Below the pieces are notes generated by a model. The model saw nothing but the letters and a program-made list of their open reading frames with translations. It was not told the origin of the DNA and did no database searches. This document shows positions 4,913-20,283 of a stretch of 64,000 bases of DNA, piece after piece; positions within the stretch are counted from its first letter, which is position 1, and the number at the start of each line of letters is the position of its first letter. The position numbers and the translations under genes are program-made. Source of the DNA: a virus; the IMG/VR virus record IMGVR_UViG_3300037420_001273; one strand, 5' to 3'.

Positions 4913-6390
4913 GCAGCATCCTTGAGATCGAACTGCGACGTAAGACTTGCGAACAAGTCAAGGAGCGTGGTCATGCGTTCGTTTTTGCGCATCAAGATGT
5001 CGTAGTACACGCGCTGGTCGATCCGGCAGTCGCCGAGCACGACGATCGTCTCGGTCTTCTCCGTCTGGCCGATGCGGTGCTGGCGCTTGTTGCCTTGCTT
5101 CCACAGCTCGAGGTCCGCCGTCGGCGAGGGCCAGATCGTAGCCGTGCCCTTGGTCAACGTCAGACCGTGCGCCGCGCTCTTCGGGTGCGCGAACATGACG
5201 CGGTAGCGGCCCATCTGGTAGGCCAGCACCATCATGTCCCGCTCCTTGTCGTTCGTCGCTCCGTCGAGCACGCAATACGTCAGCCCGCGGCTCTCAGCCT
5301 CAGCGACCATCAGGTCACGCTGGTGCTGCCAGAGGAAGAACACGAGACTGTGCTTGCGCTGCTCGACCATGTCGAGCACGAGCTCGTAACGGCTGCTGTC
5401 GATGACATGGTAGTTGCCGTCGCTGTCGTAGACAGCGCCTGAGGCGATCTGCAGCAGCTTGCCGGCCAGCACCGCAGCGTTGAGTGCCGTGAGCGGCACC
5501 ACGCTGGCTTTCTTGCCAGTGCTCAGGTACTGCTTCATCGCCGCCGGCGAGGTGTCAGTGATCAGCGCAATCTGGTCGCGCTCCATCTGTTCGTAGACGC
5601 GCCGCATCTTCTGCGGCATCTCGAAGTCGACCACATAGTGGTGGTTCGGCGGGATGTCGACGCAGTCCTCGAACTTGTGCCGCACGACGATGTCACTGAG
5701 CAAGCCGAACACGGCTTCCTCGGCGCCTTCCTTGTCGACCCAGTCGATCATGTGCTGCTGTCGGCCGACTTGCTCAGGCACGCAGACGCTGTTGCGGAAC
5801 GCATAGAAGCTAGGTCCGAGACGCTGGCCGCCGTCGAGAATGGCAACCTGGTGCCAGACGTCCGTGATCGAGCGTCCGTTGGGTGTGCCGGTGAGGCCGG
5901 AGCGGTGCTTGAAGTACTTTGCGATCTTCCTGAGCGCCTTGCTGCGCTGGCTGGTGTGGTGCTTGAATGCCGTGATCTCGTCGACGATCAGCTCGCTGAA
6001 CTTCTTGAAGAACGCCGGCCGCTGATCTGCGACCCACTTCACTCCGTCCGTGTTCACGATGTAGACATCAGCATCGACGGCGAACGCGTGAGCACGGTTG
6101 TCAGCGCGGGCGATTGACACGCGCATGTCCGGGGCGAACTTCTTAAAGTCGTTGGCCCATGCGCTCTTGAGCAGCGAGCGTGGTGCTACCACTAGCGCGC
6201 AGCCACCGCCTTTGCGCCGGCGCTCGGCGAACGCCGTGACCCGCACGAACGTTTTGCCGGTGCCGGGGTCGCTGCAGTCATAGACGACCTCAGTCGTCTT
6301 GTCGTGCTTGAGGCTCACCTTCTGGTGCGCCATTGCTTGAGATTTCATGAAGGTGTTTGCGTAGTGCTTCGCGAGAAGCGGGCGGAACAT
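4909..6390 (-). CDS. SNF2-family (DEAD/DEAH-box-like) helicase
   Basis: Walker A DPGTGKT, DExx-like LIVDEITAFKH, motif VI-like KRQHRIGQTEKT. There are three in-frame ATGs (6390, 6348, 6333). Codons already end in G/C from 6390 onward. Confidence 0.9.
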   Translation of the reverse strand: MFRPLLAKHYANTFMKSQAMAHQKVSLKHDKTTEVVYDCSDPGTGKTFVRVTAFAERRRKGGGCALVVAPRSLLKSAWANDFKKFAPDMRVSIARADNRAHAFAVDADVYIVNTDGVKWVADQRPAFFKKFSELIVDEITAFKHHTSQRSKALRKIAKYFKHRSGLTGTPNGRSITDVWHQVAILDGGQRLGPSFYAFRNSVCVPEQVGRQQHMIDWVDKEGAEEAVFGLLSDIVVRHKFEDCVDIPPNHHYVVDFEMPQKMRRVYEQMERDQIALITDTSPAAMKQYLSTGKKASVVPLTALNAAVLAGKLLQIASGAVYDSDGNYHVIDSSRYELVLDMVEQRKHSLVFFLWQHQRDLMVAEAESRGLTYCVLDGATNDKERDMMVLAYQMGRYRVMFAHPKSAAHGLTLTKGTATIWPSPTADLELWKQGNKRQHRIGQTEKTETIVVLGDCRIDQRVYYDILMRKNERMTTLLDLFASLTSQFDLKDAA

Positions 6391-6550
6391 CTGTGCGCAG
6401 CAGCCAGCGTGTGATCTCGGTGATCTTCTCTTCGCGTGTATGCTTGTTCAGCTCGGCAGTCCAGAACTGGATTCGTTCGTGCCTTTTCTCTGCCAAAGGA
6501 CTCAACTCATCCCACGTGGTGATCATCTCAATGCACAAACGGACGTTCAT
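6290..6550 (-). CDS. Hypothetical small protein (3-prime 100 nt overlaps helicase out of frame)
   Basis: 86-aa ORF whose start is ATGA-coupled to the upstream 55-aa ORF. The N-terminal two thirds have good third-position G/C. The tail, which overlaps the helicase gene, does not. Confidence 0.4.
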   Translation of the reverse strand: MNVRLCIEMITTWDELSPLAEKRHERIQFWTAELNKHTREEKITEITRWLLRTDVPPASREALRKHLHEISSNGAPEGEPQARQDD

Positions 6551-6714
6551 TCATGCTCCCGACAAGCCCAGTGCCCGCCGTTGATACGCACGCAGGCAAG
6601 AGACGCCGTGCGGCGCGCTTCAATCTTCTGAGACGGCCTGGTCTCGGTGATGCAGAGCAGCAGCACGAGGTAGCCGATGATCGCGATCACGCTGCCGGCA
6701 ACGAAGAGTTTCAT
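6547..6714 (-). CDS. Small membrane protein (55 aa, below ORF-track cutoff)
   Basis: Own translation: MKLFVAGSVIAIIGYLVLLLCITETRPSQKIEARRTASLACVRINGGHWACREHE. There are ATGA overlaps at both ends (6711-6714 and 6547-6550). Confidence 0.45.
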   Translation of the reverse strand: MKLFVAGSVIAIIGYLVLLLCITETRPSQKIEARRTASLACVRINGGHWACREHE

Positions 6715-6935
6715 GTCCTAAGCCTCTCGGTGACTTCTGCGGCGAGCACGCGCTGGCATGCTTTGCACGTCGGCGTCTTGCTGGCTTGTCTCGGGTTCAC
6801 AGGCATGTGTCGGTCGCTACCGCAGCTGCATTCACGACACACGGCTGTGAGCGTGCGCTTGCGGTTCGTCCACACCCAAGTGAGATGCGTCTTCACTTCC
6901 TCTGCACTCCGTCTTGACAGTGTCCAGAGCCCCAC
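6711..6935 (-). CDS. Small Cys-rich (zinc-ribbon-like) protein
   Basis: 74-aa ORF with paired Cys motifs (CRECSCG ... CKACQ). It overlaps the nuclease 3-prime end by 43 nt. Confidence 0.5.
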   Translation of the reverse strand: MGLWTLSRRSAEEVKTHLTWVWTNRKRTLTAVCRECSCGSDRHMPVNPRQASKTPTCKACQRVLAAEVTERLRT

Positions 6936-7600
6936 GGGCCGTAGCCGCAGTACTGGCAGCTGAACACGTTCGCGTTGGTCGGGAACTCCGTTGCCGTGGT
7001 GATCTGCATGCCGCGGCGGTGAAAGTTCGACTTGAAGCGCAGCGCCTGGTCGCGCGTGAAGACCTTCTTCGTCGTGTCGTTCTGGTCGAAGTACCAGAGC
7101 TCCGTCTCCACCACCTCGAGCTTCGGGTAGCGCAGCACGGCGTTGAGCGCGTACAGCGTCATCTGTTCACCGTGCTTGACCTCGTTGCCGAACTTGCGGC
7201 CGGTCTTGTAGTCGATGACCGTGGCGTAGGTGTCGTCCCAGAACACGGTGGCGTCGAGCTTGCAGCGGTGCCAGGCCGTCTTCCAGTCCGTCGGCTCCCA
7301 CTCGTGATCGACAGCCCACTCGCCTTCGCAAGACACCAGGCCCTCCGCGTAGAGCACGCGCAACAGGTCGAGCTCGGGACCGAAATGCTTGGATGCCTCG
7401 GGTGCAAGGAGGTCGCTCTCGCCCTTGACGTACAGCTCCGCGCTGGCGTGGATGCGGGTGCCACGGTCGTTCGCGTGTTCCGTCTTGCCGGGAGGCAGGG
7501 GACGGACCGGCTCAGGGATGCGCTGGTCGCGCATGAGCCAGACGCGGTGCTTGCACTTGTCCCACTCAGCGAGGATGGAGTGACTCCAGGACTTGAGCAT
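6893..7600 (-). CDS. PD-(D/E)XK nuclease, Cas4/RecB-like with Cys cluster
   Basis: Core ATVIDYKTGRK (D/ExK), QxxxY motif EQMTLYAL, one N-terminal Cys (KCKHR) plus C-terminal CQYCGYGPWGSGHC, as in Cas4-type Fe-S nucleases. Confidence 0.85.
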   Translation of the reverse strand: MLKSWSHSILAEWDKCKHRVWLMRDQRIPEPVRPLPPGKTEHANDRGTRIHASAELYVKGESDLLAPEASKHFGPELDLLRVLYAEGLVSCEGEWAVDHEWEPTDWKTAWHRCKLDATVFWDDTYATVIDYKTGRKFGNEVKHGEQMTLYALNAVLRYPKLEVVETELWYFDQNDTTKKVFTRDQALRFKSNFHRRGMQITTATEFPTNANVFSCQYCGYGPWGSGHCQDGVQRK

Positions 7601-8845: not shown

Positions 8846-9966
8846 TCAGAGCTCCAGACGGACCGTTTCACCCCACGGGCCTTGCGTGTCGGTAGTAGCG
8901 CACCAGAGCACCGGGAACTGCACCGGCGCGTCGGGGAACGCGCCGTACATGTCGGTCAGGTAGATGAGCGCCTTCGGCTCGATGCCGTGCTTTTCGAGCC
9001 AGCGGAACGGGGGGCGGAAGTCAGTGCCGCCACCACCATGCGGCTTGACGAAGAACTCGTCCTCGGGGAGGAACTCGTCGACGTGGTTCACCGCAGCGTC
9101 GCAGTACATCACGATCGTCTTGCGCGGACGCACCTTGCTGCGGATGTCTTCGATCTCGGTCGCGAACGCAGTCAGCGTGGCCTGGTCGATCGAGCCGGAG
9201 GTGTCGATGACGGTGACGAGCTCACCCATCGACTCACTGTACATGCCGGGCAGGATGAGGCCGTGCGCGAGCATGCGCCGGTTCGGACGCGACCAGCTGT
9301 AGTCGTCTTTCGTGCGCTCGGTGACGAAGCGACGCAGCACGGCGCGCCAGTCGACCTTGCTCGCGGTGAGCTCATCGACGAACCGCTGCAGCGACGCAGG
9401 CAGTTTGCCTGCAGACTTGGCTGCATGCGCGGCCTGCATGACAGCGTCACGCCACTCGTCCCGTTGCGCCTCGGCCTCGTCTTCGTCGCCGCTGCCGTCC
9501 AGGACGACGTCCTGGCCTCTGTCGCCCTCGAGTTGGTCGGGCAGCAGGTTGTAGATCTGGTCCGCGGTGAAGTTCTTCCACGCCGGGTTCGGCTGGACCC
9601 AGTGCTTACCGAGCTGGAAGCCGGCGTCGACGATCATGTCATTGACGACATAGTCGGCGGCGATGTTCCACTTCGCCGCATTGCGCGAGCCACGGCGCGT
9701 CATGTGATCGAATACGCAGTGGCCGACCTCGTGCGCGACGGCGCTGCGCAGCAACGGGATCTCGGTCTCCATGACGAACGTCTCGTCGTAGTAGATCGTG
9801 CTGCCGTCAACGGCGAGCGTCGGCTTCAGGCCGCGCGACTTGAACATCGCGTGCGCTTCGGGCGGCATCGGCGTGAGCTTCAACCGAAGCGCCAGGGCGC
9901 CGAAGAACGGTTGCTCGATGAGCAGCGTGGCTCGGGCCTTGACCAGGCGCTTCAAGACTTGTTCGT

Positions 9967-9970
<4 letters not shown>
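8846..9970 (-). CDS. Zincin-like metallopeptidase (HExxH) fused to von Willebrand factor A domain
   Basis: HEVGH lies in the N-terminal half. A MIDAS-like VTVIDTSGSID and GGGGTDF lie in the C-terminal half. This architecture matches the metallopeptidase-VWA partners of MoxR ATPases (DUF2201-like, from memory). Confidence 0.85.
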
Positions 9971-10974: not shown

Positions 10975-11171
10975 GACTTCAACTTCTCTGCGACTTGGAA
11001 CGCGATCCAGCGCTCGTTGATCTCCAGTGCACGCGGCACACCGTCGGCTAGATCTTGTTCGAAGATCTCAAGGTCTTTACTCCACGAACGCGCGCTGGCT
11101 GTGTATTCATCGCCTTGAGATAAATCTGAGCATATCCAGAAATTTCCCCAGACGAACCACTGTTCTTTCAT
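10971..11171 (-). CDS. Hypothetical small protein
   Basis: 66-aa ORF with 4-nt overlaps to both neighbours. Confidence 0.55.
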   Translation of the reverse strand: MKEQWFVWGNFWICSDLSQGDEYTASARSWSKDLEIFEQDLADGVPRALEINERWIAFQVAEKLKS

Positions 11172-11455
11172 TCCGTCAGCTTCGCAATCACCAGGATGTA
11201 GCGCAGCTTCTCCTCGAGCGTGAGGTTTGCTGGAACGTCAAACACGTCCGGGTCGTTTTCTTGCCAGCTACGAAATTTGCCCCCGCGGCACCACTTGTTC
11301 GACTGTGCAGAGAAGAAGAATTTGTTGTCACCGTACACATAGCTGTAGAGCCTGTGTTCATCCCAGTTCCATTGCCCAGGTATCTGCGCTTTTTCGTGGC
11401 CTACGGTCAACAGACCTTCGATCGGCTCTGGAGCCGGGTCCTGGACCCACTTCAA
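11168..11455 (-). CDS. Hypothetical small protein
   Basis: 95-aa ORF with 4-nt overlaps to both neighbours. Confidence 0.6.
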   Translation of the reverse strand: MKWVQDPAPEPIEGLLTVGHEKAQIPGQWNWDEHRLYSYVYGDNKFFFSAQSNKWCRGGKFRSWQENDPDVFDVPANLTLEEKLRYILVIAKLTE

Positions 11456-11994
11456 TGCATTTCGCTCGGTTGCGGCGACAGCGACATGCGCCCGGTCACG
11501 CGCTCGTCAGGGTTTTCGCCGATCACGATCGGCTCACCGTCGGCCTTGCCCTTGTCGTCGAACGCCTGCGTCATCAGCGTGGTGTGTCCGGCCGTGTGCA
11601 CCTGCACCATCAGGCAAGTGCGCGAGCCGGGCAAGCCGTGGATCGAGCCGTCGTAAAACGGCTTGTCGCTGCGCATCATGCTGCCTTCGGTGAGCACGAT
11701 CCCGGCCACGATCTTGTCCGCTTCGAGCATTTCGCGGATGCCCTGGAGGGCGAAGTCCTTGCCGTTCGGCGTGTTGAGCAGCTTCGGCATCAGCCCTTCG
11801 GGCGCGAACTCGCCGCACACCTTGCCGTCAACGTCGTCAAAGCCGACGACCAGGAACATGTCCGGCTCGATCGTGGCTTGGTCCGCGGCGGTGTTGGGTA
11901 CCCAGTTCTCTTCGAAACACTGCGTTGCTGCGGCGAGCATCTCGCGGGCGAAACTCATCAGCGTCTTGCGCTGGTTGTCGGTCATGACGCGCAT
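11452..11994 (-). CDS. Hypothetical protein
   Basis: 180-aa ORF with good codon bias. It is coupled to the downstream gene. Confidence 0.7.
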   Translation of the reverse strand: MRVMTDNQRKTLMSFAREMLAAATQCFEENWVPNTAADQATIEPDMFLVVGFDDVDGKVCGEFAPEGLMPKLLNTPNGKDFALQGIREMLEADKIVAGIVLTEGSMMRSDKPFYDGSIHGLPGSRTCLMVQVHTAGHTTLMTQAFDDKGKADGEPIVIGENPDERVTGRMSLSPQPSEMH

Positions 11995-11996
11995 GT

Positions 11997-12551
11997 TCAG
12001 CTCCTGAAACTGGAGACGTCGATCTCGACGAGCTGCATCGGCTCGTCGACGGCGGGGGCGGGGACGGTAGCCGGAGGCGCTTTCGGTGCGTCGACGGTCA
12101 GGTGCCGAGTGGCGTCGATGAGCCCCATCGGACCGACGACAACCCCCTCGATGCGGACGAAGTACAGGTTGTTCGTGTAGTCGTAGATATTCGGCGGGTC
12201 CTCGTCGTCCTCGGTCTCCGGCTCGTCGGCGTAGTTGTAGGAAAAGCTGTCCGTGTTGCGCAGCACGCCTTCTTCTTGGTCGAAGTCGATGACCTGGTCG
12301 TCCTCGTCCGTCGACAGGATGAGCGGTGCTCCCAGCACGTTCGCGCGCACGAAGTGGATGTCATCGAGGCCGTGGTCGAGATAGAACTCTTCTCTCCACA
12401 GCGGGTTCTCAGGCACGAACACGAGCTCGCCGGCGCGCCAGTTGCTGTAATCGATGTACATCAGGCCCAGCGGCTCATTGCGCTTCGCACGCCCTTCGAT
12501 GATCGTAGCGATCTGCCTACGCAGCGCGTCGCACTTGTTGATCAGTAACAT
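11997..12551 (-). CDS. Hypothetical acidic protein
   Basis: 184-aa ORF containing an acidic tract, EPETEDDEDPP. Confidence 0.7.
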   Translation of the reverse strand: MLLINKCDALRRQIATIIEGRAKRNEPLGLMYIDYSNWRAGELVFVPENPLWREEFYLDHGLDDIHFVRANVLGAPLILSTDEDDQVIDFDQEEGVLRNTDSFSYNYADEPETEDDEDPPNIYDYTNNLYFVRIEGVVVGPMGLIDATRHLTVDAPKAPPATVPAPAVDEPMQLVEIDVSSFRS

Positions 12552-12675
12552 AGCCAGGTTCTCCTTCTCAAGGTCCCCGTGCTCTCCGGGGTGTCACGCG
12601 CTCACGACCCGACCGCGTTCATCGGGAAGGAAGGACTGCCGGGACCGGACTGGCTCCCGCCAGCCCCAGTCGTCC

Positions 12676-14112
12676 TTACACCTCGAGGCCGGCGTTGCGC
12701 AGCTTGGTCAACAGCTGCTCGGTCTCGGCGGAGGCGGTGCGCCGCACCAGCTCTTGCATCGTCGAGTCGACGGTCGGCTCGATGTCGCTGAGCTCGCTCT
12801 GCTCCTTGAGCAGGTTCAGCTGCATGCGCATGGTCTTCGCCGCCTCGACGAGCGCCTGCTCGCTCAGCTGCTTGACCTTCTCGCCCGGCTGCTGCAGGCG
12901 CAGCTGCGCCAGCTTCGCACGTTTGACCACCTCGGCGATGACCGCCGGGATGTGGCCCGCGAGCAGCTCACCGGCCTTGGTCAGGTCGGTGGCCTGGTCG
13001 ATCGACTCGGCGCCGTAGTGGCGCAGCAGCTTCTCGACCGCCTTCGCGTCCGGCGGCGTGACGTCGATCACGGCATCCAGGCGACCCGGGCGCAGCATCG
13101 CGGCGTTGATCTTCTTGAGCTCGTTCGTCGTCAAGACGACGATGAGATTCGCGCTCTTCGTGTCGATGCCGTCGATGATGTTGAGGATGTCGTCCATCGC
13201 GACGTCACGCTCGCCGCTGAGCGCGCGGTCGATGTCTTCGCAGAAGATCACGCAGGCCGGGCTCTGGTATTGCTTGGCGAACTCGATTGCGTCGGGCAGC
13301 TCGTCGGCGCGCGGTACATACAGGTACGTGATGCCGTGGTCGACGGCCAGCTTCGAGGCCACGCGGGCGGCCAGCGTCTTGCCGGTGCCGTAGGTGCCGC
13401 CCAGCAGCACGCCGCGCTTGATCGTCAGGCCGTTGTCGATGCAGTCCTGCACGCGCTCGATCGGCGTGAACAGGCTGGTCTCGACGGCAGCCATGACGTC
13501 GTCGCTGTAGATCAGCTGCTCGCGGCGGATGTCGGACGTGTCCATGAACTTCGGCTCGGGCATCTCCAGCGCCTGGCCGTTGTCGTCCTTGAAGCGCATC
13601 TTGATCGCCTGACCACGGTACAGGCTGAACTCGGCGGCTTCGCGACGCAACTCCTCGAAGATCTTCTGGATCGTCGCCTCGTCCTTGCGCTTGACGTTGG
13701 CCGACAGGTGGAACACGAACCGCGCGCCCTTCTTGCCGACGCCGGTTTGCAGCAGGCCGTCGACCTTGGGCAGGCTGAACGAGCCCCAGGGGACCTGGAT
13801 CTTGGAGGTCGGGCCGGTGTCGATCGAGATCAGCTGCGGCGGCTGCGGGCCGAAGAAGCCCGGGGTGGCGGTTGCGGCTGACCAGCCGAACTTGCGCGTC
13901 AGCACGCGATCCAGCAGGTACGCACCGTCCCAGGGGAAGACGTCGAACGTCTCCTGGATGCCGACGGCTTCCTCGAGGAACTGCTGCCGGCGCTTGAGCA
14001 GCTCGATCGCGTCGGTGATCGGCATGCCCTCGGGGAGGACCATCTTCTCGCCGTGGTAGACGATGTCGGCCACATGGGCCTGCGGGCCCGCATCTTTCAG
14101 GTTCTTGCTCAC
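12676..14112 (-). CDS. AAA+ ATPase (classical AAA clade, single ATPase domain with N-terminal extension)
   Basis: Walker A GGTYGTGKT, Walker B VIFCEDID, sensor-1 VLTTN, Arg-finger region LRPGRLD. The start is GTG, overlapping the upstream stop (GTGA). Confidence 0.88.
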   Translation of the reverse strand: MSKNLKDAGPQAHVADIVYHGEKMVLPEGMPITDAIELLKRRQQFLEEAVGIQETFDVFPWDGAYLLDRVLTRKFGWSAATATPGFFGPQPPQLISIDTGPTSKIQVPWGSFSLPKVDGLLQTGVGKKGARFVFHLSANVKRKDEATIQKIFEELRREAAEFSLYRGQAIKMRFKDDNGQALEMPEPKFMDTSDIRREQLIYSDDVMAAVETSLFTPIERVQDCIDNGLTIKRGVLLGGTYGTGKTLAARVASKLAVDHGITYLYVPRADELPDAIEFAKQYQSPACVIFCEDIDRALSGERDVAMDDILNIIDGIDTKSANLIVVLTTNELKKINAAMLRPGRLDAVIDVTPPDAKAVEKLLRHYGAESIDQATDLTKAGELLAGHIPAVIAEVVKRAKLAQLRLQQPGEKVKQLSEQALVEAAKTMRMQLNLLKEQSELSDIEPTVDSTMQELVRRTASAETEQLLTKLRNAGLEV

Positions 14113-14279
14113 GTAGGTTTCCTTCTTTCGGTCGATTGCAGGAGTGCCTTCTTGACCAGCTCGACCTGGTACCGTTCAAGAAGTCTTTGCGCGAATGCTT
14201 CGCCTTTGGCTGCGCGTTCTTGGGCTATGAAGTCATACGCCTCGCGTGCCTTGAACCAAGCGTCTATGTCGAATCTCAC
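14109..14279 (-). CDS. Hypothetical small helical protein (56 aa, below ORF-track cutoff)
   Basis: Own translation from GTG 14279: (M)RFDIDAWFKAREAYDFIAQERAAKGEAFAQRLLERYQVELVKKALLQSTERRKPT. There is a GTGA overlap with the AAA gene start and a GAAGG sequence upstream. Confidence 0.4.
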   Translation of the reverse strand: MRFDIDAWFKAREAYDFIAQERAAKGEAFAQRLLERYQVELVKKALLQSTERRKPT

Positions 14280-14293
14280 TTAGACCTTCGATT

Positions 14294-15322
14294 TCAGGTC
14301 AACACCTCGTGGTTCTTCACAGCCCAGTTCGTGAACGCCTTCGACTTGCTGATGCTCTCGTCGCGACGCACGCTGTCGCGCACGAACACGACCTGGAACT
14401 CCTCGGGCAGGCGCGAGGTGTACTGCATCAGAATGTCGAAGTTGTCCGGGGTGGCGCGGATGGCCAGGCTCGTGGTCAGCGCGTAGAGCACCGCCGGCTT
14501 GTCGCGGCCGGGCACCGGCGCTTCCTTCGGCTTGAGCATGATCACGTCCGGGTGGGGCAGCTCGCGGTACACGTTCAGGAACGTGAGGAACTCACCCGCA
14601 GCGCCTTCGCCGACGGTGCCCTTGAGCACCTCGCGCTCGACCGCCGGCGGCAGGTGGTTCTTGATGATGTCGTTGACGAACATCCAGCTGCGCGGGCTCG
14701 GAAACGCGCGCGGGTTGCTCGCAGCGTCGAATGAGTGCAACAGGTTCGACTTGAAGCGCAAGAACGCGAGTACCTCCTCGTGGATGCCGTTCTTGAGCGC
14801 CCAGTCGCTGAAGTCGTCCAGGTTCACCTCGAAGTCGAGGTGGATGAACCGGTTCGCCAGCGCGGCGGGCATGGCGTGTACGACCGAGCGGTCACTGGCA
14901 CGGTTGCCGGCGGCGATGATCGACCAGCCGTCGGGCAGGACGTACTCGCCGATGCGGCGGTCGAGGATGAGCTGGTAGCCCGCGGCCTGCACCGACGGCG
15001 GAGCGCTGTTCATCTCGTCGAGGAACAGCACGCCTTCGGACTCGTTCGGCACTTCCTTCGATCCCTTCTTGACCGTCATCGGGGGCAGGAAGTCCGGCGG
15101 CAGCCAGCTCATGACCTTCTTGACGGTGTCGGGCACGGGGAAGCCCTTCAGGTCGACCGGGTCGAGCAGGCTCATGCGCACGTCGCGGAACTCCTTGCAC
15201 TGGCTGTCGGCGACTTGGCGAGCGACAGCGGACTTGCCGACGCCGGGCGGGCCCCAGATGAAGACGGGGCGCTTCTTCTCGATGGCGACGTTGAGGGCCT
15301 TGGCGATGTCAGACGGTTTCAT
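14294..15322 (-). CDS. MoxR-like AAA+ ATPase
   Basis: Walker A GPPGVGKS, Walker B VLFLDEMNSA, IIAAGN sensor region. The 342-aa size is typical of MoxR/AAA_5 proteins that pair with VWA proteins. Confidence 0.88.
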   Translation of the reverse strand: MKPSDIAKALNVAIEKKRPVFIWGPPGVGKSAVARQVADSQCKEFRDVRMSLLDPVDLKGFPVPDTVKKVMSWLPPDFLPPMTVKKGSKEVPNESEGVLFLDEMNSAPPSVQAAGYQLILDRRIGEYVLPDGWSIIAAGNRASDRSVVHAMPAALANRFIHLDFEVNLDDFSDWALKNGIHEEVLAFLRFKSNLLHSFDAASNPRAFPSPRSWMFVNDIIKNHLPPAVEREVLKGTVGEGAAGEFLTFLNVYRELPHPDVIMLKPKEAPVPGRDKPAVLYALTTSLAIRATPDNFDILMQYTSRLPEEFQVVFVRDSVRRDESISKSKAFTNWAVKNHEVLT

Positions 15323-15356
15323 TCACGGGTCCTTTCTTCCGTGGGGTTGAGGGATT

Positions 15357-15605
15357 TCAGTCTTTTATGAGCTGCAGGTATGCGATCGCAGCTTCCTTGG
15401 TGTCGAAGCTTGGGTTGCTGATGCGTTCGTTTAGCGCTGGTATGTCCGAAACGATCCACCAGCGGTTGTCGTCAATGAAGCGCACAACGACAACAACGAT
15501 TCCCTTGATATTCCACTCTCCTTCGGTGTGGAGAAGCACGTCGTAGTGCCTGCCGAAAGGGCCGTAACTCAACGGCGGATTGCGTATCTGCTGTTCGATC
15601 TTCAT
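15357..15605 (-). CDS. Small paralog family member 1 (WW ... FDTxEAA motif)
   Basis: 82 aa. It contains NRWWIV ... SFDTKEAAIAYLQLIKD. See the paralog-array finding. Confidence 0.6.
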   Translation of the reverse strand: MKIEQQIRNPPLSYGPFGRHYDVLLHTEGEWNIKGIVVVVVRFIDDNRWWIVSDIPALNERISNPSFDTKEAAIAYLQLIKD

Positions 15606-15838
15606 GCCAGCAACCTCAGTGCGGCGTAGGCTGCTTCAGCGGTATCGAACGGGTCGATGTCTTCGAAGCGCTTCTCGTCGTGGGAATCGTCGGGAACAAT
15701 CCACCATTTATTGTCGGTTGCGAGTTGAGTAACGACGCAGTCGATGCCTTTGATCTGCGTGTTGAAGCTGTTGTCGTAGAACAGGTATACAACCGTGGTG
15801 CCGCGATGCGGTTCGCAGGCCGGTTTGAGCTTGAGCAC
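15602..15838 (-). CDS. Small paralog family member 2
   Basis: 78 aa with a GTG start. It contains NKWWIV ... PFDTAEAAYAALRLLA. Confidence 0.6.
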   Translation of the reverse strand: MLKLKPACEPHRGTTVVYLFYDNSFNTQIKGIDCVVTQLATDNKWWIVPDDSHDEKRFEDIDPFDTAEAAYAALRLLA

Positions 15839-15839
15839 C

Positions 15840-15995
15840 TTAGACCCCGAGACGAGTCTTCAGCGAGGCCAGCTCGATGGCCTTACGCTCGGCGTACTTC
15901 GGGTCTTTGGCCGCCTTGGCCTCGTCGATCGTGAAACGCTCGAGGGCGTGGCGGCGGCGTGCTTGGTGTGCTTGGGAGAGGGGTGCCTTCTTCAT
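15840..15995 (-). CDS. Hypothetical small basic protein
   Basis: The start was moved to MKKAPLS (ATG 15995) with GGAG upstream. The longer ORF-track version reads through the intergenic TTAGATCGAAC motif. Confidence 0.4.
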   Translation of the reverse strand: MKKAPLSQAHQARRRHALERFTIDEAKAAKDPKYAERKAIELASLKTRLGV

Positions 15996-16013
15996 GGCCT
16001 TGTAGGCTCCAAA

Positions 16014-16040
16014 GGTTAGATCGAACGAAGAGATTAGATC
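16014..16040. promoter_or_regulatory. Dispersed motif instance
   Basis: ggttagatcgaacgaagagattagatc, upstream of the ATG at 15995. Confidence 0.55.
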
Positions 16041-16073
16041 ATGCGACGAAGCGCGTGGTCTACTGGTTTTCAC

Positions 16074-16313
16074 TCACTGGCGTAGCGTGCGTGCAACTTC
16101 TTGCGCAAGGTGATCTCGCGCTGCAGCGATGTAGAGGCGCATGGCAGTGATCGTGTAGTACTGCAGATACGGAAACTCGCTGCGATAGAAATGTTGAGGG
16201 CAGAGGCTCCGCATACGCCGGCGTGTGCGTCGGTTGAGCAGCAACGTGATCGTCGGCGGCTTAGCTCGGTCGCACCTGGCTTCGAGCGTGTCGAGGAACT
16301 CGTGGTCAGTCAT
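16074..16313 (-). CDS. Hypothetical small protein
   Basis: The start was taken at MTDHEF (ATG 16313), which forms an ATGA overlap with the upstream stop. Length is 79 aa. Confidence 0.5.
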   Translation of the reverse strand: MTDHEFLDTLEARCDRAKPPTITLLLNRRTRRRMRSLCPQHFYRSEFPYLQYYTITAMRLYIAAARDHLAQEVARTLRQ

Positions 16314-16537
16314 TTGCGCAGACGTCCCCACGCGAGAGCTTCAGCAGCACTGTCGAACGTCTTCACGACGTCGTTGCTCAGGAGGTAGCGTCCGATCCAC
16401 TCGGCAGCTTCTTCCTGCGTGTCGAATCCAGGTGATGGATCGTTCCAGAAAGGCATCCACCAGCGACGGTAATGCGGGTCGAACCTGCCTGATGGCAGTT
16501 GAACGATGCGCACACGCGTACGGAAGGGGTTTTTCAT
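16310..16537 (-). CDS. Small paralog family member 3 (motif present twice)
   Basis: The start was taken at MKNPF (ATG 16537, ATGA overlap). It contains RRWWMP ... GFDTQEEAAEWIGR and a second TFDSAAEALAWG. Confidence 0.55.
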   Translation of the reverse strand: MKNPFRTRVRIVQLPSGRFDPHYRRWWMPFWNDPSPGFDTQEEAAEWIGRYLLSNDVVKTFDSAAEALAWGRLRK

Positions 16538-16722
16538 TTCTTCACCGGCGCTTGATGCTTCGCCCATTCTTCGAGCTGCTCTGCCGTCATCTCCTTGGGG
16601 CAGTACTCGAGCATGAGCGCATCGATCCTGGCTTGAAGAGCTTGCGCGTCTTCGTAGCGCACGTAACGGCCGTCTTCACGAACGACCATCGCGACATTGG
16701 GCTCGGGGTTGAATCGAATCAT
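16534..16722 (-). CDS. Hypothetical small protein
   Basis: The start was taken at MIRFNPEP (ATG 16722, ATGA overlap). Length is 62 aa. Confidence 0.5.
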   Translation of the reverse strand: MIRFNPEPNVAMVVREDGRYVRYEDAQALQARIDALMLEYCPKEMTAEQLEEWAKHQAPVKK

Positions 16723-16934
16723 TGCGTCAAGACCTTGTAGGCGTATGCAGCTTCGGCGGTGTCGAAGGGGCCGTAGTAACTGGCGGGTGGTGGGGCGGCG
16801 TTGTAGACCCAATACTTGCTGGTGCGGTATTCACGAACGACGCCCCAACTGTTTTCAGCATCTGCGACCCATAATTGGTCGTACCACATGCCCCACCACG
16901 AAAGATTCGTGGATTTGAGTGTCTCGGGCTTCAT
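16719..16934 (-). CDS. Small paralog family member 4
   Basis: The start was taken at MKPETL (ATG 16934, ATGA overlap). It contains SKYWVY ... GPFDTAEAAYAYKVLTQ. Confidence 0.6.
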   Translation of the reverse strand: MKPETLKSTNLSWWGMWYDQLWVADAENSWGVVREYRTSKYWVYNAAPPPASYYGPFDTAEAAYAYKVLTQ

Positions 16935-17203
16935 TCCTTGAGCAACAGCAGCGCTGTTTCCGCGGCTTCGAGTGTGTCGTACGGGCCGACGTTGTCGAAC
17001 TCCGCGTCTTCGTCGTGTGGTGTGATCCACCACTTGTCGTCGTCGAGGAACTGGCCGATGCCTACGCTGACGCCTTTGACAACTGGTGCGGAAGGTTTAG
17101 AGCCGCTACCGTACCAGTGGATGTATTTGCGTCGTGTAGGTATATGCACGAACGACACGTCGTACATGGGCTTCTCGACGTGGTGAGGCAGGAAATTGCT
17201 CAT
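16931..17203 (-). CDS. Small paralog family member 5
   Basis: The start was taken at MSNFL (ATG 17203, ATGA overlap). It contains DKWWIT ... GPYDTLEAAETALLLLKE. Confidence 0.6.
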   Translation of the reverse strand: MSNFLPHHVEKPMYDVSFVHIPTRRKYIHWYGSGSKPSAPVVKGVSVGIGQFLDDDKWWITPHDEDAEFDNVGPYDTLEAAETALLLLKE

Positions 17204-17424
17204 GACGTTAGCACCAGTACAACGTACGCAGCTTCGAACGTGTCGAAGGGACCGTTGACTACACCAACTTTGCGGAGTGTGTTGCGCACCCAAAACTTGT
17301 GGTTCGTGTCTTCCCAGATACGCCAGTGGTTAGACGGTTCTTTTATCCACCAATGCAGTATTTGGAAGCCGTAGCACGCGTTTATATCACCTTGTGTTGG
17401 TTGAAATGGACCTTTGAGCTTCAT
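17200..17424 (-). CDS. Small paralog family member 6
   Basis: 74 aa. It contains HKFWVR ... GPFDTFEAAYVVLVLTS. Confidence 0.6.
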   Translation of the reverse strand: MKLKGPFQPTQGDINACYGFQILHWWIKEPSNHWRIWEDTNHKFWVRNTLRKVGVVNGPFDTFEAAYVVLVLTS

Positions 17425-17429
17425 GCCTT

Positions 17430-17675
17430 TCAGTCTTTCATGAGCACGACGGCGGTGTGCGCGGCTTCGATGCTCGTGTACGGACCATAGCGCGACGGAT
17501 TCTCGAACTCACACGCTTCGATCCAGAACTCACCGTTCTTGTACTCGGCGATAAGTACCTCAACGCCCTTTATGGACCATTCGCTGTCGTTGCCGAACGG
17601 AGTAGCTGACCAATATCGCCTGATGCTTTGTTCTCGGCCGTTGTAGTTCACCGGCGGAAACGTGTGGAGCTTCAC
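17430..17675 (-). CDS. Small paralog family member 7
   Basis: 81 aa with a GTG start. It contains GEFWIE ... GPYTSIEAAHTAVVLMKD. Confidence 0.6.
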   Translation of the reverse strand: MKLHTFPPVNYNGREQSIRRYWSATPFGNDSEWSIKGVEVLIAEYKNGEFWIEACEFENPSRYGPYTSIEAAHTAVVLMKD

Positions 17676-17681
17676 GGGATG

Positions 17682-17908
17682 TCAGTCCTTGAGCAGCTGG
17701 ACGACAACATGAGCCTCTTTGAGCGTGTCGTAGGGACCGTACTCGAATGAGTTGGACATGTCTTGGTATGGGACGATGAAGAACTTGCCCCTGTGCTCGA
17801 GGCCATGTCTCCTTTTATGAACCAGCTACCTATGTCAGGTATCCAAATGTCTTTGTACTCTCTGTTGCGTGCGGTTTTGGCGATCCAATGAACTCGGCAG
17901 AGCTTCAT
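17682..17908 (-). pseudogene. Small paralog family member 8, split by a 1-nt frame change at an A4 run
   Basis: The N-terminus MKLCRVHWIAKTARNREYKDIWIPDIGSWFIK is in one frame. The family C-terminus, RRHGLEHRGKFFIVPYQDMSNSFEYGPYDTLKEAHVVVQLLKD, is in the -1 frame and stops at 17682. The junction is at ttttat on the plus strand (17813-17818). Confidence 0.55.
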
Positions 17909-20283
17909 CCCTTCGCTCCTACAGCTTTGAGCTCAGGCTTGCCGGTCGGTGCGAACAAGCGCTTGAAGCGGGGCCACTGCGTGAGGTCGCGCCACTGCAC
18001 CTTCAAGCCGTAGACGGGCTCGCCGTCGACGCGTACGCGCTCGGTGGTGATGCGATGATGCTTGACGAAGCTGGTGAATTTGTTCGGGCTGTCGGGGATC
18101 TTGCCGACGGTGTACTCGAAGATGGCACGCAGCTCGTCGCGAGCGATATTGCAGCGGCCGTCGTTCATGTCCGTGCGCTCGAGCAGGCTCTTGATCACGT
18201 TCTTGTAGTCCTCGACCTTCGCGATCGAGCTGGCGCTGCCGAGGTAGCGGCTGTCCGTCGGCAGCTGGTCGATGAAGAACTCCATGTCGCCCTTGAGCAG
18301 CGCGTTCGCGACGCTGTCGGCTGAGGACTCGGTCAGGTCCATCAATGTGTCACGGTCGGCGTTTTGCAGAACGTTGAAGACCTTCGCGCGGTCGACCTTG
18401 AGTGCGAGCAGGAAGTCGTGGAACGGCTGCAGCTCGCGCTCGATCGTGGCCAGGTCTTTCTCGGTCAGCACGATCTTGTTCGGCTGGTACTTCGCGACGT
18501 TGAAGCGTCGATCATCCTTGGTCACGCGCACGGGTGCTGAGGCGTTCGAGCAAAAGATCCACGCGGTGTAGTTGCGCACCAGGCGAGCAGTGGCATGCAT
18601 GCGGCGCACCGGGATGAACTCATCGGTGATGTACATGCGCAGGTCCGCCATGGCTCCGCGCTCGTTCGACAGTGCGTTGGTCTCGACCTCATCGACGGTG
18701 ATCAGCAGGTTGTTCTCGATGAAGTCGTTGAACTTCTCGTCGAGCTGCTTCATGCGGATGACGGTGGAGTGCTGCAGGCCGAAGAGCGGGCGCAGGATCT
18801 TCGCGACCAGCGTGCCCTTACCTGTGCCGGGGATGCCGTGAAAGACCCAGGCGGTGAGCGGACGATCGCGTTCCTGCAGCACGTAGGCCAGCCAGTTGAC
18901 GAAATGGTTGTACGAGTCCGTGTCGTTGCCGCACACGTGCTCGATGACCTTGCGGATCGTCTTCGGCATATGAGCGATAGGCTTGGCCTGCGCTTTCATG
19001 AAGGAGCTCAGCTGGAACGTGTTGATGACGCGGTTGTCGATGTCCACGCGTACGCTGTCGTGCGGGTCGAACACAAGGCGCCATTCGGGGATCACGCCGT
19101 CGGGCAGCTGTATGCCGTTGGCTTTGGCGAAGTCCATCAGGACCTTGGAGCTCTTGGTTGGTTCGAGCTCGAGCTCGTCGTTGACCGAATCGTAAGTGCC
19201 GCGCCAGTAACGGTCGGTAGCTGGATCGATGAACGCGAGCTTGAGTACGCCCTGGGAGTCCGCCTTCACCGGCTGGTGGTGGAGCTGCTCCCAGTACTCA
19301 GGTAGCAGCTCCTTGGTCAGATAGATCGGCTCGCCCTTGAAGTTGAAGATGAACTCGGGGTTGTTCTCGGGGTGGTAGTACGCCCAGGAGTCACCGCCAT
19401 TGAGATTGAAGTAGACGAAGCCGCGTTCTTGCTTGATCTCGGTGACGGAGCAGACGTCGGGCTTGACCAACACCTCCATGCCGCTGTGCATCTTGTACTG
19501 CGTCTTGCGCTTGGGCAGTCCGTCGGTGGCGCGCAGCTCGTCGATGCGCTTGTTGATGGACTCGCGGTTCTTGGCGACAGTCGGGACAGCGGTGATGGAC
19601 AAGCGTTCCTTGTCCTTGCGCACGAGCGTGATGCGCGGCTGGTTCTTTAGCGGGTCTTTCACGCCCTTGAGCACCGGCGAGGCGATGTAGATCAGCTTGT
19701 CGTTCTGGCTTGCGCTGGTGTCCAGCGGCCAGTGGATCGAGTTGCCGGTCTTGGTCAGCGTCATCGACTCACGCAGCAGCGGCGTGGAGAAGTTCAGGCC
19801 GATGAGCCACTGCTTGAGCTGCGGCGCAGGCATTGGCTTGTCGAGCAGCATGAATACGTGCGCGCGCAGCTGCTTGTTCTCGAGTCCGTAGCTGGCGGAC
19901 CATTGGACGATGTAGGAGACGTCGTTCAGGCCGAGCACGAACAGAACGTCGTCGACGGTGACGGTCGCTGTCTTGCCGTCCACGGTGGTGGTGTCGGGCA
20001 GTCCGTCGATGTCCAGGCAGATCCACTCGGTGGGCTCGTTGCTGTCCGTGGTGCCGGCACGCGACTCGTTGACGAGGGTGCGAGCCAGGTGGCCTTTGAG
20101 CAGGCAGTGGTTGAGCTTGGCGTGGTGCTTGAGCACAGCTTCGAAGTCGCGCAGGTCGCGCACGTTCGCTTCGTGGCTGGTGACTTCGTAGACGTGTGGG
20201 TAGGGGGTCTTCTTGAGCGTTCCCTGCGCAAGCTCGTAGGTCTTGGTCAGGGGCACTGTGGCTTCGAGGAAGTGCAGCTTCAT
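17905..20283 (-). CDS. Primase-helicase (N-terminal primase-like region plus P-loop NTPase)
   Basis: 792 aa. P-loop FHGIPGTGKGTL with downstream LLITVDEV. The overall architecture resembles VirE/D5-type phage or plasmid primase-helicases (from memory). It is the first long gene of the leftward operon. Confidence 0.9.
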   Translation of the reverse strand: MKLHFLEATVPLTKTYELAQGTLKKTPYPHVYEVTSHEANVRDLRDFEAVLKHHAKLNHCLLKGHLARTLVNESRAGTTDSNEPTEWICLDIDGLPDTTTVDGKTATVTVDDVLFVLGLNDVSYIVQWSASYGLENKQLRAHVFMLLDKPMPAPQLKQWLIGLNFSTPLLRESMTLTKTGNSIHWPLDTSASQNDKLIYIASPVLKGVKDPLKNQPRITLVRKDKERLSITAVPTVAKNRESINKRIDELRATDGLPKRKTQYKMHSGMEVLVKPDVCSVTEIKQERGFVYFNLNGGDSWAYYHPENNPEFIFNFKGEPIYLTKELLPEYWEQLHHQPVKADSQGVLKLAFIDPATDRYWRGTYDSVNDELELEPTKSSKVLMDFAKANGIQLPDGVIPEWRLVFDPHDSVRVDIDNRVINTFQLSSFMKAQAKPIAHMPKTIRKVIEHVCGNDTDSYNHFVNWLAYVLQERDRPLTAWVFHGIPGTGKGTLVAKILRPLFGLQHSTVIRMKQLDEKFNDFIENNLLITVDEVETNALSNERGAMADLRMYITDEFIPVRRMHATARLVRNYTAWIFCSNASAPVRVTKDDRRFNVAKYQPNKIVLTEKDLATIERELQPFHDFLLALKVDRAKVFNVLQNADRDTLMDLTESSADSVANALLKGDMEFFIDQLPTDSRYLGSASSIAKVEDYKNVIKSLLERTDMNDGRCNIARDELRAIFEYTVGKIPDSPNKFTSFVKHHRITTERVRVDGEPVYGLKVQWRDLTQWPRFKRLFAPTGKPELKAVGAKG

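Follow-up and report, generated by a model that had tools for sequence, protein, structure and literature searches.

A tandem array of small, diverged proteins in the replication module of a KPP25-like phage and its possible role in host interaction

Composition and setting of the small-protein block

The window, a stretch of 64,000 nt of viral DNA (IMG/VR record IMGVR_UViG_3300037420_001273), is a phage genome fragment whose 792-aa primase-helicase is 42% identical to its counterpart in Pseudomonas phage KPP25 (Kochitakasuvirus). The same sequence is carried by a 70,027-bp JGI metagenome contig, and a megablast search of deposited phages found none similar to the window at the DNA level. A replication module occupies the minus strand from approximately 21.4 kb down to approximately 2 kb of the window, and includes the block of small open reading frames (ORFs) that is the subject of this study (Table 1). 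An initial annotation, made from the sequence alone, had described this block as eight paralogs located between the primase-helicase and a MoxR-like ATPase, each ending in a G-P-[FY]-D-T-x-E-A-A motif preceded by an aromatic strand-like element, with three unrelated small ORFs interleaved. The location, the motifs, the aromatic elements and the three interleaved ORFs were found as described, and seven of the eight ORFs are intact exactly as delimited. The eighth, 17682-17908, is not an intact gene, and the number of copies that can be shown to be related is seven, including the frameshifted O8, with O3 appearing as a look-alike.

Leave-one-out profile hidden Markov models (HMMs), run against the 1,267 six-frame ORFs of the window, recovered O1, O2 and O4-O8 at E 5e-6 to 1e-11, the best ORF from outside the array reaching E 0.3 or worse. 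Pairwise BLASTP linked O2 with O5 (2e-13), O1 with O2 (8e-11), O5 with O7 (1e-8) and O7 with O8 (7e-8), while O4 and O6 form a divergent Trp-rich subgroup (mutual E 4e-10). The relatedness of the seven copies is well beyond chance, and the proposal of a conserved C-terminal core behind poorly conserved N-terminal halves is supported as describing a real multi-copy family of tiny proteins. Scores obtained with a further profile (external-only HMM), built from 60 family members outside the window, are included in Table 1; the family HMM found no copies in the window beyond the array.

Table 1. Features of the small-protein block and of the surrounding replication module, in the order of transcription (pI, isoelectric point).
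Feature	Coordinates	Strand	Description
284-aa gene		-	First gene of the replication module as listed, before the primase
Primase-helicase (DUF5906)	17905-20283	-	Upstream flank of the array, with predicted translational coupling to it
Small-protein block	15357-17908	-	Between the primase and the AAA_5/MoxR-like ATPase
O8 locus	17672-17908	-	Intact 78-aa ORF from the ATG at 17908; ATGA overlap with the primase stop, GTGA overlap with the O7 start
O8 C-terminal remnant	17682-17825	-	-1 frame, ending in GKFFIVPYQDMSNSFEYGPYDTLKEAHVVVQLLKD and a stop codon; leave-one-out HMM E 4.8e-6; external-only HMM E 2.5e-6
O7	17430-17675	-	81-aa member; leave-one-out E 4.7e-10; external-only E 1e-9
O6	17200-17424	-	74-aa member, divergent subgroup; leave-one-out E 2.5e-7; external-only E 0.02
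O5	16931-17203	-	90-aa member, net charge -6; leave-one-out E 6.7e-11; external-only E 2e-13
O4	16719-16934	-	71-aa member, divergent Trp-rich subgroup; leave-one-out E 2.6e-7; external-only E 6.5e-4
I3	16534-16722	-	Unrelated 62-aa acidic ORF; C-terminal half replaced in the sister variant (L014)
O3	16310-16537	-	75-aa basic protein with two F-D-[TS]-x-x-E-A motifs; apparent motif look-alike
I2	16074-16313	-	Unrelated 79-aa basic ORF, pI 10.0; no Pfam or PHROG match
Gap between I2 and I1	15996-16073	.	78 nt, the sole sizeable intergenic gap within the block; 11-pair inverted repeat at 16035-16062
I1	15840-15995	-	Unrelated 51-aa basic ORF, pI 10.4; no family HMM match; L013 ortholog 90% identical
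O2	15602-15838	-	78-aa member, the most canonical; HRGT turn motif; pI 4.7; external-only E 1.5e-25
O1	15357-15605	-	Intact 82-aa member, pI 5.6; leave-one-out E 2e-11; external-only E 1e-13
AAA_5/MoxR-like ATPase	14294-15322	-	Downstream flank of the array
Second AAA ATPase	12676-14112	-	Replication module
HNH endonuclease, exonuclease, helicase, DNA polymerase		-	Replication module, listed after the second AAA ATPase

O3 and the family have only RRWW and GFDTQEEA in common. O3 was not recovered by its leave-one-out HMM (E 8.5), gave no match to the external-only HMM and a probability of 5% when compared with the family by hhalign, and a word-indexed protein search returned its own ortholog P0009 as sole relative. 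When compared with a sister variant of the phage (L013 and L014, from one of the same samples), O3 shows strong purifying selection, with a ratio of nonsynonymous to synonymous divergence (dN/dS) of 0.07. On sequence comparison O3 is not demonstrably a member of the family.

The region first delimited as the eighth copy is 227 nt long, which is not a multiple of three. Of the 78-aa ORF that is intact at this locus, the N-terminal 35 residues or so are family-like, and the last 45 or so are an out-of-frame, Ser/Thr-rich read after '…SWFIKGD'; the segment GKFFIV...GPYDTLKEAHVVVQLLKD sits in the -1 frame and has no usable start codon. The change of frame must fall between 17825 and 17790, with a GGGG run close by at 17788-17791. 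An assembly error was ruled out, the frameshift being common to three contigs from other samples that are 100% identical over 15300-17960. A programmed -1 frameshift was considered for an A_AAA_G stretch (17811-17819) lying within the permitted interval, and was judged unlikely because this stretch is not a canonical X_XXY_YYZ heptamer, because the conserved I-K-G runs on in frame 1 beyond it, and because the downstream RNA is no more structured than shuffled sequences (z -0.47). A pseudogene, that is a frameshifted remnant, is the more likely explanation. A chimeric product, composed of the family N-terminus and the Ser/Thr-rich tail, may be made from this locus, whose ATGA and GTGA couplings are intact.

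Eight of the twelve gene junctions from the primase through to the ATPase are 4-nt ATGA or GTGA overlaps, in agreement with the stop-start overlaps noted at the outset, and between 14000 and 21800 neither a sigma-70-like promoter nor a minus-strand terminator-like site was found. From these two properties, the block is taken to belong to a single transcription unit whose genes are translationally coupled. The array was also said to use more A/T-ending codons than its neighbours, which is borne out by a third-position GC content (GC3) of 0.67 compared with 0.89 in eight neighbouring genes; the interleaved ORFs range from 0.68 to 0.79, and O6 has the lowest value in the array (0.55). The inverted repeat between I2 and I1 could be a site of RNA processing, attenuation or protein binding that divides the array into two sub-operons. 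The HNH endonuclease of the replication module (374 aa, 8846-9970; phrog_1314, E 7e-97) may be a mobile homing element.

The family and its tandem arrays in other phages

While a word-indexed profile search retrieved only the window's own proteins and three orthologs, an exhaustive profile search yielded 73 proteins at E<=1e-3, approximately 65 of them metagenomic proteins with a length of 75-98 aa and a coherent pattern, HR..I.G..V..D.KWWI.P..D.GP[FY]DT.E.A..L, with the H-R at a hairpin turn and a final L-x-L. The core residues WW, GP, A and L are at least 90% conserved over approximately 69 family proteins. The family is acidic, with a median pI of 4.77 and a median charge of -6; 58 of 69 members are below pI 5.5 and a single one is above pI 8. 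No match to the 71 or 69 members searched was found in Pfam-A, PHROGs v4 or NCBIfam, and tblastn with two members (O5 and P0012) against 50,697 deposited phages gave none either. Pattern scans of IMG/VR returned nothing useful, and scans of genome and metagenome collections with a strict degenerate-DNA pattern gave one chance match each, the pattern being too narrow to prove absence. On the strength of these comparisons, this is an undescribed protein family whose hallmark is its occurrence as tandem arrays across diverse phages. The cap motif of the family is reused in other repeat families, as shown by two longer proteins, P0013 (714 aa) and P0044 (543 aa). In each of these, which Pfam does not identify as AP2 proteins, F-[FY]-D-T-x-E-E-A closes every one of 5-10 tandem repeats.

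Every longer external locus that was retrieved carries multiple adjacent copies: five in L005/L006/L008 (GC 0.51), four in L010/L011 (GC 0.41), at least four in the 1.5-kb contig L009 (GC 0.62), four in the 205-kb contig L017 (GC 0.485), and, in the 481-kb contig L015 (ERZ929261 k127_515909, GC 0.46), seven strong copies together with four weaker derivatives of 126-135 aa. The latter, adjacent to one another at 5748-7313, align with the profile over its C-terminal half alone (E 1e-2 to 8e-7); located upstream of the seven canonical copies, they resemble a sub-array that is older and extended. Tandem paralogs, a presence and copy number that vary (4-11 in five phage contig groups) and high divergence are the traits by which arms-race multigene families are recognised, and all of them were found here.

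L005, L010 and L017, all phage contigs, are relatives of the 490-kb Agrobacterium phage Atu_ph07, the isolated phage nearest to the jumbo contigs. In these jumbo phages the array is preceded by a VWA gene and a gene of approximately 260 aa; Atu_ph07 keeps this pair and has no array. In KPP25, which among isolated phages is the nearest to the window phage, the surroundings of the primase likewise contain no copy. Since both phages lack it, the arrays are, as far as gene content can tell, dispensable accessory insertions in variable slots.

The position of the array in the window also suggests another explanation. The array is coupled to the stop codon of the primase and lies, with the primase on one side and two AAA+ ATPases on the other, in a single minus-strand unit that shows no promoter-like or terminator-like interruption. 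Its products could be adaptors or accessory subunits that serve phage replication, would modulate the primase-helicase or the AAA+ ATPases, and would not be directed at the host. MoxR ATPases usually have VWA proteins as partners, and a functional MoxR/VWA link was considered from the MoxR-like ATPase that abuts the array in the window and the VWA gene that it follows in one jumbo-phage clade. This link was rejected, the VWA pair representing clade synteny that is present in Atu_ph07 without the array. Moreover, the neighbours are not conserved: no flanking homologs are common to L015 and the window, the neighbours in L015 being unrelated, and none of the genes in the window has a homolog in the flanks of the jumbo-phage arrays. 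Phages of the KPP25 type, whose primase is homologous, replicate without such genes, and multiple fast-diverging copies are unexpected for a core replication cofactor. We therefore regard a role as replication adaptors as improbable.

Predicted fold and resemblance to known domains

The AlphaFold2 model of O2, computed from 69 sequences, is confident, with a predicted local distance difference test score (pLDDT) of 96 and a predicted template-modelling score (pTM) of 0.85; the model of O7, computed from 10 sequences, reached pLDDT 81. The O2 model consists of strands at residues 2-11, 14-22, 32-39, 45-49 and 61-64, followed by a C-terminal helix at 67-77. Conservation is found at the β1-β2 turn (H-R), at the start of β3, and in β4 (W-W-I), β5 (G-P-F-D-T) and the helix (E, A, L), whereas β1, β2 and the loops are variable. 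The fold search that had been proposed along with the structure prediction gave nothing significant in the PDB for either model (Foldseek, best E 0.4 for O7 and 2.3 for O2; template-modelling score (TM) at most 0.47), nor in BFVD for the O7 model (best E 0.12). For so small a protein this means the lack of a recognisable match and is not proof of a new fold.

The top BFVD matches of O7 include small phage proteins of the 'HNH endonuclease family', AP2 proteins and a 75-aa protein of Erwinia phage Cronus, the last being among the top structural matches (TM approximately 0.6) and presumably corresponding to the ORF at L021 35809-36036 (MH059636; …RWEFSLWEF…YVDTFPTVEAAIKAARELK; UniProt identity unconfirmed). 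Despite its layout of β-strands and an 'F-P-T-V-E-A-A' helix, the Cronus protein was rejected as a member by the family HMM (E 3); this ORF of a T4-like phage may be a very remote relative.

A resemblance to AP2 domains was also considered. Both AP2 and, in the models, the family present a short β-sheet followed by a helix that is capped by [LG]-G-x-[FY]-[DE]-T-x-E-E-A, and strands 3-5 and the helix of the models are in AP2 order. The family profile reaches true AP2-repeat proteins (P0016, P0024, P0066 and P0067) at E 1e-8 to 5e-4, and hhalign aligned the family (A5) with an AP2 alignment (A6) at a probability of 82%. The weaker of the two models weakly matched the AP2 entries 6sy0 and 7et4 (Foldseek E approximately 4), the BFVD matches to phage AP2 and 'HNH endonuclease family' proteins had probabilities of up to 0.99 but E values of at least 0.2, O1 weakly matched an HNH-endonuclease PHROG (E 0.12), and an HNH endonuclease gene is present in the same replication module. 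The copies could thus be stand-alone AP2-like nucleic-acid-binding domains, either small regulators of transcription or replication or leftovers of HNH-AP2 homing endonucleases, that would recognise DNA via their β-sheet.

Membership in AP2/ERF (PF00847) was nevertheless rejected: none of the eight ORFs (E<=1) and none of the 71 members (E<=0.1) matched this model, whereas the four AP2-repeat proteins, used as controls, scored 67-214 bits (E 2e-18 to 2e-64). The hhalign match is confined to 14 columns, namely the G-x-F-D-T-x-E-E-A strand/helix cap, and the same cap occurs in unrelated domains (SPOR, DUF1816 and YflT, which the AP2 repeats themselves weakly match, and the RNase H1 N-terminal domain). 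The family, acidic where AP2 is basic (median pI about 4.8), does not show the conserved Arg/Lys-rich or Arg/Trp-rich sheet with which AP2 contacts DNA, it has two extra N-terminal strands, and the pLDDT-96 model matched no AP2 structure in the PDB. Its acidity, the 14-column limit and the failure to match PF00847 argue against AP2-type DNA binding, an explanation that we consider quite improbable.

Other resemblances were likewise rejected as memberships. DUF2188 is a small domain with a W-containing strand and an F-x-T-x-x-E-A helix cap, and a likeness of the family to it had been suggested; this did not hold, as PF09954 matched none of the eight ORFs at E<=1 and none of the 71 members at E<=0.1. 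The RNase H1 N-terminal/Cauli_VI domain (PF01693) matched O3 alone, over residues 57-70 and at 12.6 bits (E 0.17), below the gathering score of 21 bits, and hhalign of the family with the human RNase H1 hybrid-binding-domain sequence gave a probability of 1.6%; here too it aligned the cap motif alone. A deeper profile matched the SH3 domain of ASAP1 (E 0.016-0.03) through an 'EDQEWWI' strand, which was dismissed as a chance motif, the pLDDT-96 model having no SH3 match.

T7 Gp2 is a 64-aa acidic inhibitor of the host RNA polymerase (PDB 2WNM, 2LMC) that is encoded by a single-copy gene. Like the family proteins it is small and acidic and combines a β-sheet with a helix, and K-[FW]-W-x-x-V … [YF]-x-[ED]-T-x-[DE]-E-A is similarly spaced in both, this being the stretch that hhalign aligns. 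A relationship with Gp2 was rejected: the hhalign probability was 1.1% (query sequence checked against 2wnm_A), Gp2 was absent from both the PDB sequence matches and the Foldseek matches, and its strand order is β-β-α-β, compared with β5-α in the O2 model. It may still serve as a model for a possible action, the binding and blocking of a host enzyme. Judged by their sequences, the cap motif occurs in several unrelated small domains, and AP2, DUF2188, RNase H1, SH3 and Gp2 are resemblances, not memberships.

Divergence of the array and its proposed role

Between the sister variant and the window, DNA identity is 100% over 11154-13100 and falls to about 95-98% along the two ATPases (about 13100 to 15320). 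The flanking ATPase proteins are identical at 341 of 342 and 477 of 478 residues (dN 0.001, dN/dS 0.01). Over O1-O2, DNA identity is 53-92% per 60-nt bin, and the proteins of the array are 63% (O2, with P0007), 69% (O1, with P0010) and 77% (O4) identical. For O1, O2 and O4 the dN is 0.11-0.26, or 100-250 times that of the neighbours, and this comparison with a related phage, which the initial annotation had proposed, sets a dN/dS of 0.38-0.54 in the array against the 0.01 of the flanking ATPases. When the three are pooled, dN/dS is 0.62 from the N-terminus to the WW strand and 0.26 from the WW strand onward. The dS is raised as well, at 0.28-0.67 in the array compared with 0.07-0.19 in the flanks.

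Mosaic allele exchange probably contributes to the divergence of the array, and allele exchange together with relaxed constraint would explain it as well as positive selection does. Mosaic structure was also observed outside the family members. The identity step near 13100, which is accompanied by almost no amino-acid change, suggests that a recombination breakpoint lies within the AAA ATPase gene. I3 and its counterpart at 382-642 of L014 (62 aa and 86 aa) have kept their first 27 residues or so, the remainder being unrelated, which is a clear recombination mosaic. Between the two ATPases, a 56-aa ORF (14109-14279) carries 11 inserted residues in the sister variant (L013 1792-1995) and shows a dN/dS of about 1.3, its large neighbours being essentially invariant.

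The array had first been interpreted as local amplification plus strong divergence. Divergence much faster than that of the neighbours was confirmed, but local amplification is too simple a description: O2 is 50% identical to a jumbo-phage copy, L010_c3, from a contig of 41% GC (E 7.5e-21), compared with 43% for its best paralog in the window. Because O2 is nearer to this copy than to the window paralogs, and because arrays recur in unrelated phages, sequence comparison suggests that the paralogs are old, or that copies have been exchanged between phages, and that the array is not the product of a recent local burst.

Some of these properties would also be expected if the copies were decaying, functionless duplicates, genomic filler that is still open by chance: a dN/dS of 0.4-0.6 is compatible with much-relaxed constraint, O8 is frameshifted, O6 has a weak codon bias, and JGI gene calling omitted O6 and O8 on three contigs. 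Decay, however, would hardly leave the core residues WW, GP, A and L conserved as they are in phage contigs whose GC content ranges from 0.41 to 0.62, or the C-terminal part of the proteins with the lower dN/dS. The frames also keep the coding pattern GC3 > GC1 > GC2, the start-stop coupling is preserved, and the fold prediction is confident. This explanation is considered very improbable.

We tentatively favour, at a confidence somewhat short of even, the reading of the array as a set of diversified small binder proteins that serve host takeover or counter-defence. The copies fit accessory arms-race genes because they are multi-copy, compositionally distinct, fast-diverging and absent from the nearest isolated relatives; protein binding or mimicry is favoured over DNA binding because the family is acidic; and the frameshifted O8, being fixed in the population, fits birth-and-death turnover. 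A repertoire of host-directed binders would further account for the combination of one scaffold with a variable face, recurrent arrays, dispensability, turnover, poor codon adaptation and co-expression with early/middle replication genes.

In such a repertoire, the scaffold of each small, soluble and mostly acidic protein would consist of five β-strands followed by the C-terminal helix, with the D-x-K-W-W-I strand and the G-P-[FY]-D-T-x-E-A strand-to-helix cap holding the fold together, and with the variable N-terminal β-hairpin and loops probably forming the specificity surface. The array would be co-transcribed and translationally coupled with the replication genes, and each copy may bind a different protein of the host or of a competing element. 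The phage would maintain the cassette as a library of many alleles, with duplication, allele exchange and loss renewing it.

Several points weigh against host-directed binders. No homology to a characterised anti-defence or takeover protein was found; the genes in the window are part of a replication module and do not belong to an early or anti-defence island of the classic type; neighbouring genes are not common to the different phage groups, so that context gives no target; and O3, O6 and the reconstructed O8 are not acidic. In addition, the dN/dS of the array never exceeds 1 in the sister-variant comparison, which does not demonstrate positive selection, and its raised dS suggests recombination with more distant alleles over accelerated evolution in situ. 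A more far-reaching proposal, which we hold to be doubtful, is that an unrecognised fold family is kept by very different tailed phages, from KPP25-like phages of about 70 kb to jumbo phages of 200-480 kb, as a tandem library of diversified binders, in which each copy would neutralise a different host defence or enzyme and the N-terminal hairpin would act as a hypervariable paratope on the WW/GPFDT scaffold. Such a library would be an inhibitor repertoire encoded by the phage and diversified in its germline.

Clusters of small accessory genes are well known in phages, examples being the host-takeover module of SPO1, the hyperplastic regions of T4 and anti-defence gene islands. As in the array, these clusters contain tightly packed small genes that are variable between relatives, fast-evolving and dispensable. 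They are mostly composed of unrelated genes, whereas here one family occurs 4-11 times in tandem, and does so in phages whose sizes range from about 70 kb to 481 kb.

Uncharacterised families of small phage genes are plentiful, and finding another is to that extent less surprising. At the least, approximately 65 sequence clusters at 50% identity are described here that are missing from Pfam, PHROGs and NCBIfam; the recurrent tandem arrays in unrelated phages provide a simple genomic signature for locating further such cassettes, and the confident predicted structure makes the family experimentally tractable. Should its members indeed be host-directed binders, new inhibitors of bacterial defence systems or essential enzymes could readily be drawn from the family, and the family would offer a clear case from nature of a phage that maintains a repertoire of many copies, rapidly renewed, on one scaffold.

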